Positions 57,611 through 59,339 of a stretch of 64,000 bases of DNA are shown in pieces. The DNA comes from a virus (Duplodnaviria; Heunggongvirae; Uroviricota; Caudoviricetes). The stretch's first letter is position 1. Each line of letters opens with the position of its first letter. The stretch lies in the IMG/VR virus record IMGVR_UViG_2880412407_000002; one strand, written 5' to 3'. The notes beneath the pieces were generated by a model that saw only the letters and a list, made by a program, of their open reading frames with translations, made no database searches and was not told the DNA's origin. Position numbers and translations under genes: made by a program.

Positions 57611-57961
57611 TGAAAATAACATGAAACCTTTGGATTCTGGTGTTTCAGTGGATGGGAAAAGAGCAGATACATAGAAAATGAATAGCAATAATTCACAGTC
57701 TGGATGTTGTTTGTATGCTTATAAAATGATCCTAGTATGCATTGCCGGAGTTGAATCAGCTCCAATGAAGAAACTGAGAGGAGTATTTAGAAGATAGCTA
57801 AATGGATGTAATTATTAGTATCTAAAAAATAGTATTTTTGAAATGGGTCTAAGAACACAACAATGTACAAATGAGAAGTTATCTTTTAATATGTTCAAAG
57901 ACCCATTAGGATTGATATCAGTTATGTTAGCTAGATTGATAAAGTGATTACATATTTTCTG

Positions 57962-58735
57962 TTATATGCTGAAATGAATAATGCTATTCCAGAGTGCAGC
58001 AGAGAAAGTCTCCTGATGATTGAGCTCTGGAAATTGTACAATAGAAAAATTACTGTATTTTTCTGTCAAAATATTTCTCAAAACAGATTCCGCTTTGATG
58101 GCTTCAGGATATAAAGATGCGGAGTAATCAAGGCTAAGATTTCCGTTAAGCAAGCATATACTTTTAGTGTGCTTTGATTCTGATATATCATCTTTAATTA
58201 TCTTGATGATTCTTTCATTCTGCCATAGAAGTGATGGTGCAGATATATAATAATAGTTAAAGCATGAATTATTTTTTAAGCAATCAAGCACAAAAATAGC
58301 ACCTAGCGAGTGCCCACATATACCGATTCTGGAACTGTTCGGAGCAATAGTACTAACCCATGGCATGATCTGAGTTAGTAATAATTCTCGGAAAGACTGG
58401 CTTCCTCCACCAGTAAAGTAGATCCATGCTGGTTTAGAGTTATCAACAATAGCATTTTCACCATCAGGAGTATAATCGTAAGCACGGCGATGAATGCTAA
58501 GGTTATTCCAAGATTCATAACCAAGTGTAACTAACACTGGTGGATTGGGTAGTGCATCAATAACAGGCAGAATATCAGAAATGTAATTGTTGGCACTATT
58601 CCCATCAAGTATATAAAGAGTTGCATTATTTTTTTTAATGTTTTTTGGAGTAAAAATACATATTTTATATTTGGTGTCATGGTTAATTGAGTTAAATATG
58701 CGTGTTTGACAATGAATGTCCATATGTTTAGTCAT
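57962..58735 (-). CDS. Alpha/beta-hydrolase esterase (esterase D / Fes-like family) in a low-GC island
   Basis: 257 aa with LDGNS and GHSLGA (GxSxG) motifs; no signal peptide; markedly AT-rich. Confidence 0.6.
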   Translation of the reverse strand: MTKHMDIHCQTRIFNSINHDTKYKICIFTPKNIKKNNATLYILDGNSANNYISDILPVIDALPNPPVLVTLGYESWNNLSIHRRAYDYTPDGENAIVDNSKPAWIYFTGGGSQSFRELLLTQIMPWVSTIAPNSSRIGICGHSLGAIFVLDCLKNNSCFNYYYISAPSLLWQNERIIKIIKDDISESKHTKSICLLNGNLSLDYSASLYPEAIKAESVLRNILTEKYSNFSIVQFPELNHQETFSAALWNSIIHFSI

Positions 58736-59339
58736 GCGTTCTCCCCATGAGCATTAAAGGATGCTTAAGATATGCTATGTCACTGATAAAAAATTTGTTG
58801 TGTGTGTTTAGTTATTTTATCTACCTCCATTATGATTTAAGACTGATATATGTTATCAGCAAAGGTACATCGTTATTATTTTACCTGTCAATACATTTGA
58901 TATTGATTATCGTTTACATCGCTTGCTTAGGAAATTGAAGGCAGGTAACTATCATGTCAATGAACTAACCCACAGTCTAACGTACTTCTTTCCCCAATCA
59001 CCAACAACCAAATTCCTGTTATCACCACTGGGATTTTGGCGCAACTTCATGGTGCAGAGGTAAATAGCATCAAGCAAAATCTCTTTTTCCGTTGTTGTCC
59101 TTATGGGACGTCTGTCTTTCTGACCGATTTCATATTGGCGAGGTAATGGGAAGTTAAGTAGAATAGCTGCGGGTGCTTGAGGCTATCTGCCTCGGGCATG
59201 AACACCAACGGCAGATAGAGAAAAGCCCCAGTTAACATTACGCGTCCTGCAAGACGCTTAACATTAATCTGAGGCTCAATCTATGAACGGCAAATCTAGG
59301 TTAGCCTCTTACGTGCCGAAAGGCAAGGAGAAGCAGGCT

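Follow-up and report, generated by a model that had tools for sequence, protein, structure and literature searches.

The closest described relatives of the gene reported here are siderophore esterases. BesA (BES), the bacillibactin/enterobactin esterase of Bacillus (PDB 2qm0), is a leaderless cytoplasmic enzyme that frees iron from ferric trilactone siderophores, and PfeE, the ferric-enterobactin esterase of P. aeruginosa (PDB 6gi0-6gi5), is periplasmic and encoded beside its receptor gene pfeA. IroE, the salmochelin/enterobactin trilactone hydrolase of the iroBCDEN cluster (PDB 2gzr/2gzs), consists of a lidless single alpha/beta-hydrolase domain with a Ser189/His287 catalytic dyad, and Fes, the cytoplasmic enterochelin esterase of Escherichia coli and Shigella (PDB 3c87, 2b20), combines an N-terminal lid domain with a Ser-His-Glu triad (PMC10515146). 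Esterases are also established cargo of lambdoid prophages in enterohaemorrhagic E. coli (EHEC), where the NanS-p sialate O-acetylesterases serve nutrient acquisition (PMC5120812). The gene described here, ECs1077, lies on an AT-rich island in the second of two prophages (prophage 1 and prophage 2) on a 64,000-nt stretch of Caudoviricetes DNA (IMG/VR record IMGVR_UViG_2880412407_000002), hereafter the window. Judged from its sequence and a structural model, the reading that we favour, with moderate confidence, is a prophage moron encoding a cytoplasmic catecholate-siderophore esterase.

The sole gene of the island corresponds to Sakai ECs_1077 (ECs1077), EDL933 Z1341 and RefSeq WP_000160651.1, and is annotated publicly only as a "hypothetical protein" or "alpha/beta hydrolase". 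Its identity with Z1341 follows from the gene labels in Table S4 of Landstorfer et al. 2014 (Z1338, "putative replication protein"; Z1342, "cell killing protein", that is hok; Z1344, endonuclease), since in the EDL933 RefSeq annotation the DnaC-like gene and hokD are separated by exactly three coding sequences, those for DUF1627, DUF977 and the hydrolase. The initial annotation had proposed an alpha/beta-hydrolase encoded against the phage operon, and both parts stand: the open reading frame contains YILDGN and CGHSLGA and lies on the minus strand, and the neighbouring phage genes (DUF977, 57182-57610; hokD, ~59340-59495) are on the plus strand. In a phmmer search of the PDB the best match was IroE (2gzr; E 2.8e-24), aligned over residues 8-253, which is the full length of ECs1077, followed by BES (2e-12), PfeE (8e-10) and EstA (3e-8), the last belonging to the fungal siderophore esterases; the whole significant list consists of siderophore esterases. 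The AlphaFold2 model, built with 105 homologues, is confident (predicted local distance difference test score 91.5; predicted template modelling score 0.91), with the fold beginning at residue 9. Foldseek comparison of this model with the PDB returned siderophore esterases at all ranks from 1 to 30 (PfeE, EstA, IroE, EstB, BES and an IroE-like Shewanella hydrolase), with template modelling (TM) scores of 0.72-0.80 and E values of ~1e-18 to 1e-13. The initial reading of the gene is essentially right, and its label "esterase D / Fes-like" calls for refinement: Fes and esterase D are both distant, ranking after those 30 matches at E ~1e-10, and the model shows a single alpha/beta-hydrolase domain that lacks the N-terminal lid of Fes. 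Sequence and predicted structure therefore place ECs1077 in the IroE/PfeE/BesA siderophore-esterase family.

The residues on which this family depends are conserved. In the HMMER alignment (IroE numbering being the PDB chain index plus 40), the catalytic IroE residues Ser189 and His287 correspond to S143 and H240 of ECs1077, and Asp90 and Arg130, reportedly important in IroE, correspond to D44 and R84. All 105 homologues have D44, R84, D87 and G141, and H142, S143 and H240 are kept in 103-104 (at least 98%; S143 in 104, H240 in 103). D44 and R84 are the Asp of the LDGN motif and the Arg of R-x-x-D-Y-T-P, and the nucleophilic Ser stands in G-H-S-x-G. The position tentatively aligned with a catalytic acid (residue 199) is Asn in ECs1077 and varies across the family. 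ECs1077 thus retains the full family catalytic set, with S143 as predicted nucleophile, H240 as predicted base and D44/R84 as predicted auxiliary residues. When 1.8 billion cluster representatives were scanned exhaustively with HMMER, the matches dropped from ~83% identity (E. coli copies) straight to 33%, with none in between; the gene is therefore not a common housekeeping esterase fragment, the outcome that the initial annotation had named as fatal to its proposal. The nearest species-level relatives are proteins of Pantoea and Acinetobacter, at 30-33% identity.

No export signal was found in the sequence, in line with the cytoplasmic location first suggested for the enzyme. The first 50 residues are hydrophilic, and the most hydrophobic stretch of 15 residues among them scores -0.07 on the Kyte-Doolittle scale. 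A longer N-terminus is ruled out by an in-frame TAA located 21 nt before the ATG, and the upstream sequence encodes no hydrophobic segment and preserves no vestige of a signal peptide in any frame. At the N-terminus homologues typically carry a signal peptide followed by a "PLGxNIADxGS" segment, which makes them longer by a median of 38 residues; of 102 homologues only 7 have no such leader (93% carry the extension). Lacking the signal peptide or anchor of most of its relatives, ECs1077 is predicted most likely to stay in the cytoplasm.

The island itself is sharply set off. The lower GC content noted initially is evident in a composition profile of the window: values of 0.30-0.38 across ~57600-59000 compare with 0.50-0.57 in both flanks and 0.50 overall. 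Positions 57611-58988 (1378 bp) have a GC content of 0.335, and equally low values occur in 0.15% of same-length segments of the window, the lowest being 0.332 for the segment starting at 57574. On its left the cassette adjoins the 3' end of the DUF977 gene, and on its right a remnant phage gene that precedes hok/sok. When the window was compared with itself, prophage 2 matched prophage 1 on either side of the island (57187-57576 with 8345-8733, 89%; 59142-61350 with 11786-13996, 97.5%). The interval enclosed by these anchors is filled in prophage 1 by ~3 kb of small nin-type genes on the plus strand (DUF4406, RseB-domain, DUF4014, DUF551 and hypotheticals) and in prophage 2 by the 1.57-kb island, which confirms that the island replaces the accessory genes of prophage 1. 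The span first given to it, 57611-59140, coincides with the homology breakpoints because the homology between the two prophages stops at 57576 and resumes at 59142; the AT-rich cassette proper, however, ends near 58988. The rest (58989-59140) has a GC content of 0.43 and contains the N-terminal part of a plus-strand phage gene, annotated in RefSeq as an incomplete hypothetical protein, which marks old phage DNA adjoining the cassette. Homology with a divergent allele, L004, is likewise lost at 58988, after which that allele has 233 unrelated bases where the window has 135. A search around the island for flanking direct or inverted repeats, as the signature of a mobile element, found only short chance repeats.

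Prophage 2 (45688-64000) aligns as one block with prophage Sp4 of Sakai (O157:H7) at 99.05%, and the window matches genomes of Shiga toxin-producing E. coli of the O121:H19 type at 100%. NZ_CP027317.1 and Sakai served as the comparison genomes; prophage 1 of the window is not colinear with NZ_CP027454.1. The EDL933 annotation labels Sp4/CP-933M a cryptic prophage. The island is best read as a horizontally acquired moron of an Sp4/CP-933M-type lambdoid prophage, placed in its nin-like region and transcribed in the direction opposite to the phage early operon: it combines foreign composition between conserved phage genes with a terminator-like hairpin, predicted promoter-like sites and transcription in uninduced EDL933.

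This transcription was documented by Landstorfer et al. 2014, who applied strand-specific RNA sequencing to EDL933 under eleven conditions. In reads per kilobase per million (RPKM), Z1341 reached 13 in LB, 10 in LB at pH 9, 0 in LB at pH 4, 12 in LB at 15 °C, 5 in LB with nitrite, 48 in LB with trimethoprim-sulfamethoxazole (log2 fold change 3.7), 8 on LB agar, 14 in M9 minimal medium, 9 in spinach juice, 4 on radish sprouts and 5 in faeces. Nine of the eleven conditions thus gave 4-14 RPKM against a background of ~0.14, and with the authors' cut-off of p ≤0.05 the gene counted as active in 12 of 13 data sets (Landstorfer et al. 2014). Z1341 is therefore transcribed above background, which answers the doubt raised at the outset that the gene might be silent, and this transcription is low-level and takes place in uninduced lysogens. 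Trimethoprim-sulfamethoxazole was the sole marked inducer among the eleven conditions, and no comparable induction was seen for the neighbours Z1339 and Z1340; this data set had the lowest sequencing depth of the study, and many prophage genes were induced in it. In an older array study Z1341 rose 2.5-fold on contact with HEp-2 cells; it was one of 71 genes so induced, among which ent, fep, chu and exbB were well represented.

The features of the cassette are listed in Table 1. The ~250 nt upstream of the ATG are ~90% conserved in the divergent allele, and the stretch that holds the putative promoter is almost fully conserved in the 90% allele. The LexA box consensus has a spacer of 10 nt. Induction by trimethoprim-sulfamethoxazole led us to consider the palindrome, which is similar to a LexA box, as such a box, and it was rejected as a canonical one on account of its spacer of 11 nt. 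The Fur-box-like site scores 14/19 in the divergent allele; among shuffles of the 265-bp upstream region, 8 of 2000 reached four or fewer mismatches to the Fur consensus, and 12/13 Fur cores number two in the window against 0.14 expected. The other such core belongs to a strong Fur-box-like site, TTGCAAATGATAACCATTATCATTTTT (22472-22496; 16/19 consensus, 12/13 of the 6-1-6 core), located in the intergenic gap of prophage 1 between an Rz-like lysis gene (21808-22275) and a DUF1441 small-terminase gene (22690-23166). The hairpin downstream of the gene, with a folding energy of -33.7 kcal/mol as RNA (z -3.9) that no shuffled sequence equalled, is likely to be the cassette's own terminator. Rfam gave nothing within the cassette, the only match above threshold being sok (59171-59345).

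Table 1. Features in and beside the esterase cassette of prophage 2 (window positions)
Feature	Position	Strand	Basis or detail
AT-rich foreign cassette	57577..58988		Composition; homology to prophage 1 ends at 57576 and resumes at 59142; homology to L004 spans 57017-58988
Long hairpin (arms 57842-57857 and 57892-57907) followed by a U-rich tract	57822..57907	-	Inverted repeat, 55-140 nt downstream of the stop codon
Coding sequence, 257 aa, predicted leaderless IroE-family serine esterase	57962..58735	-	Open reading frame; phmmer against PDB; AlphaFold2; Foldseek; dN/dS; locus tags
Shine-Dalgarno sequence GGAG	58741..58744	-	5 nt upstream of ATG, read from the sequence
Second promoter-like site, ATAACA-16-CATAAT (58856-58829)	58829..58859	-	Promoter scan
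Perfect 17-nt palindrome CTGATAACATATATCAG, overlapping the second promoter-like site	58843-58859	-	Identical in an otherwise ~10% diverged allele
Putative promoter (predicted)	58862..58891	-	Perfect -35 TTGACA (58891-58886), 18-nt spacer, weak -10 TACCTT (58867-58862)
Fur-box-like site GTAAACGATAATCAATATC	58899..58917	-	15/19 consensus, 12/13 of the 6-1-6 core, 7 nt upstream of the -35
Truncated phage gene remnant (…PVITTGILAQLHGAEVNSIKQN…)	58997..59080	+	RefSeq pseudogene at the same place in identical copies; translation

On the reading of a siderophore-esterase moron, the cassette would be a self-contained unit of promoter region, one gene and a terminator-like hairpin, and its product a cytoplasmic serine esterase with Ser143 as nucleophile and His240 as base. 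The enzyme would cleave the ester-linked serine backbone of catecholate siderophores of the enterobactin type, as BesA, Fes or IroD do, and the lysogen would gain a second route by which to release iron from such siderophores or to recycle them. The substrate, which the initial annotation had left unknown, is narrowed by the family to predicted catecholate trilactone siderophores, which are probably what the enzyme cleaves; we infer both the cytoplasmic site of action and the benefit to the host. A wider proposal, that EHEC lambdoid prophages spread a leaderless, IroE-derived esterase that serves in the cytoplasm as a second hydrolase of catecholate siderophores, independent of Fes, is put forward tentatively and is held to be rather unlikely. 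Such a hydrolase might use xenosiderophores (salmochelins, bacillibactin) as substrates or change the mix of products that arise from enterobactin breakdown, and through it phages would directly modify the iron-acquisition chemistry of a pathogenic host.

Several observations weigh against a siderophore esterase. Identity to characterised esterases is only ~27-30%; the Pfam family PF00756 ("Putative esterase") scores 15.2 bits (E 0.018) against a gathering threshold of 22, a score which the nearest relatives of ECs1077 do pass, and a scan of NCBIfam assigned no family. No gene for siderophore transport or synthesis adjoins ECs1077, whose neighbours are DUF977 and hok/sok, and none lies near the Pantoea and Acinetobacter relatives, which stand alone, so that their context is unhelpful. 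E. coli already has Fes, so that a benefit from another such esterase is not obvious. In M9, fes rose by 8.0, entF by 7.6 and fepA by 5.0 log2 units, and Z1341 by only 0.6 (Landstorfer et al. 2014), which argues against classical Fur derepression of the gene. Fur control is unproven: a Fur-box-like site ahead of a siderophore-esterase homologue is suggestive, but the expression in M9 lends it no support. Silencing of AT-rich DNA by H-NS is a plausible confounder of Z1341 expression. The allele in the window has, moreover, a Cys at position 140 (codon 140, 58316-58318), directly before G-H-S-L-G. In Sakai and EDL933 (O157:H7) and in the 90% alleles this residue is Trp; 88 of the 105 family members have either Trp or Phe here, and no other sequence of the family alignment has Cys. 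O121:H19 and O26:H11 copies with 100% nucleotide identity share the Cys140 allele. A Cys beside the nucleophile elbow could weaken the enzyme in the window's lineage. Finally, in O26:H11 strain 11368 (NC_013361.1, 1182577-1185889) the gene is split by the insertion sequence IS1203 into two pieces, both annotated "alpha/beta hydrolase", and is therefore dispensable there. The O26 genomes RM8426 and 2012C-4606 show the same split and two-piece annotation, and in two other genomes, PE164 and E105, the island carries IS3/IS481 insertions. The IS1203 split and Cys140 argue against an essential role for ECs1077.

Four other explanations were considered, which rank by weight as a different substrate, extracellular action, a functionless passenger and, last, phage-host conflict. 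The one that survives best, unlikely as we hold it to be, is that ECs1077 has the fold of IroE and a substrate other than a siderophore, such as another ester or depsipeptide of the gut, and is a moron for a different metabolic or detoxifying purpose. Identities of only 27-33% to its relatives, the siderophore-free surroundings of the gene and of its closest relatives, the lack of co-induction with the Fur regulon in minimal medium and the sub-threshold PF00756 score are all consistent with this. Nevertheless, the characterised proteins among the 30 best structural matches are siderophore esterases without exception, as is the whole significant sequence list, and all family-invariant residues are retained.

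That the enzyme works outside the cell, released by phage lysis or by a non-classical export route such as type III secretion, and degrades the siderophores of its producer or of competitors, is improbable. Its closest relatives are secreted or periplasmic, the prophage belongs to EHEC lineages positive for the locus of enterocyte effacement, and expression peaked (RPKM 48, log2 fold change 3.7) under prophage-inducing trimethoprim-sulfamethoxazole. Yet that data set is the shallowest of the study, ECs1077 has no recognisable signal of any kind, and the gene runs counter to the phage operons and is transcribed in uninduced lysogens. Sp4/CP-933M is, moreover, labelled cryptic, and the gene occurs in no deposited phage genome examined: megablast and tblastn searches of 50,697 phage records found no close copy, the four weak matches being IroE-like genes at ~28-29% identity, three of them in records of 230-690 kb. 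Among the viral structures of BFVD only generic alpha/beta hydrolases were matched, with TM scores of at most 0.58.

The gene could also be a decaying, largely silenced xenogeneic passenger that hitch-hikes with a successful prophage, and this too is improbable, the more so in view of its distribution. Its GC content is 0.344, and 0.279 at third codon positions. DNA of so low a GC content is usually silenced by H-NS. The modest expression, the insertion in O26:H11 11368 and the W140C change in the window allele would fit decay. Against this, the gene was found in 470 of 5426 complete E. coli genomes, nearly always as a single copy, with at least 99% identity in 457 and a match covering at least 80% of the gene in 466. 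The carriers include O157:H7 (Sakai, EDL933), O145:H28, O121:H19, O26:H11, O103 and O111, and the listed examples are almost all of EHEC serotypes. A further allele at 90-95% identity is carried by 13 genomes; its L004 version occupies the same DUF1627-DUF977-esterase-hok position and adjoins a different replication module. The 74 nucleotide differences between the window and L004 alleles correspond to a dN of 0.054, a dS of 0.324 and a dN/dS of 0.165, which indicates purifying selection on the protein. The intact catalytic and invariant residues, the confident fold and transcription at 30-100 times background likewise argue against a passenger.

Least probable of all is a gene of phage-host conflict, acting in defence, anti-defence or superinfection exclusion, for example by a change in how siderophore receptors used by other phages and by colicins are expressed or occupied: its place among nin-region accessory genes near hok/sok, RelBE, YdaS/T and a "phage exclusion protein" annotated in Sakai would suit such a role, but no PADLOC defence model matched ECs1077 at E values up to 1, its PHROG (8493) has no known function, no partner genes are present, and the fold points specifically to siderophore esterases.

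Other parts of the window also show features of note. A second AT-rich stretch (61212-63062), where the GC content falls to 0.357, follows closely on the Q antiterminator gene and is probably another moron; its plus-strand open reading frame 61882-62706 encodes a membrane protein resembling CPBP-family intramembrane proteases and corresponds to Sakai ECs_1085. Further low-GC stretches lie at 43300-46250 (minimum 0.374) and 16180-17790 (minimum 0.364), places that in related strains are those of the type III secretion effector gene espK, at the tandem-prophage junction, and of iraM. The sok/hok leader (59171-59345) is a clear Rfam match (107 bits), and just downstream of hokD, at 59504-59585 on the plus strand, a sub-threshold match to the Hfq-binding small RNA isrK was seen (27 versus 50 bits, E 0.0035).

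Both the enzyme family and the moron concept are already known; what is new is that an uncharacterised prophage gene present across the main EHEC lineages, on which no study was found in the literature searched, is placed in the IroE-like family and may tie prophage cargo to siderophore chemistry. This assignment turns an anonymous gene into a testable hypothesis about iron acquisition. Were the siderophore reading true, siderophore processing would join the functions carried by phage morons; were the enzyme inactive on siderophores, ECs1077 would be one more accessory esterase.

Among the known systems, IroE is the best sequence match of ECs1077 and shares with it the lidless single domain, the Ser/His dyad and the Asp/Arg pair (PMC10515146 for IroE). 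ECs1077 differs in lacking the first ~44 residues of IroE, which form a membrane anchor or signal, and in standing alone in a prophage, outside any iro cluster, with only ~27-30% identity and a GC content of 0.34. BesA is of the same family (Foldseek TM 0.80, phmmer E 2e-12), and its mode of action is the one proposed for ECs1077; it is, however, further away in sequence than IroE, the phmmer match covering only residues 20-189, and is encoded on the chromosome in a Fur-regulated siderophore locus of Firmicutes. PfeE, although the top Foldseek match (E 2e-18, TM 0.77), is only ~21% identical. Fes shares the reaction and compartment proposed for ECs1077, but its catalytic domain is distant (Foldseek E ~5e-10), the TM score normalised to Fes is only 0.47 on account of the extra lid domain of Fes, ECs1077, at only 257 aa, has neither that lid nor the triad, and fes, unlike Z1341, responds to minimal medium with strong induction. 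NanS-p sets the precedent for an esterase as prophage accessory cargo, and prophages of this type also have a SASA-family esterase further downstream; fold and substrate are nevertheless unrelated, and the nanS-p genes are located in the late region downstream of Q/stx, on the phage strand. ECs1077 is thus a leaderless, prophage-borne member of the IroE-like family, neither an orthologue of IroE nor Fes-like in the family sense, and the best-supported view is that it is functionally closest to BesA, Fes and IroD and by descent closest to the periplasmic IroE-type enzymes.

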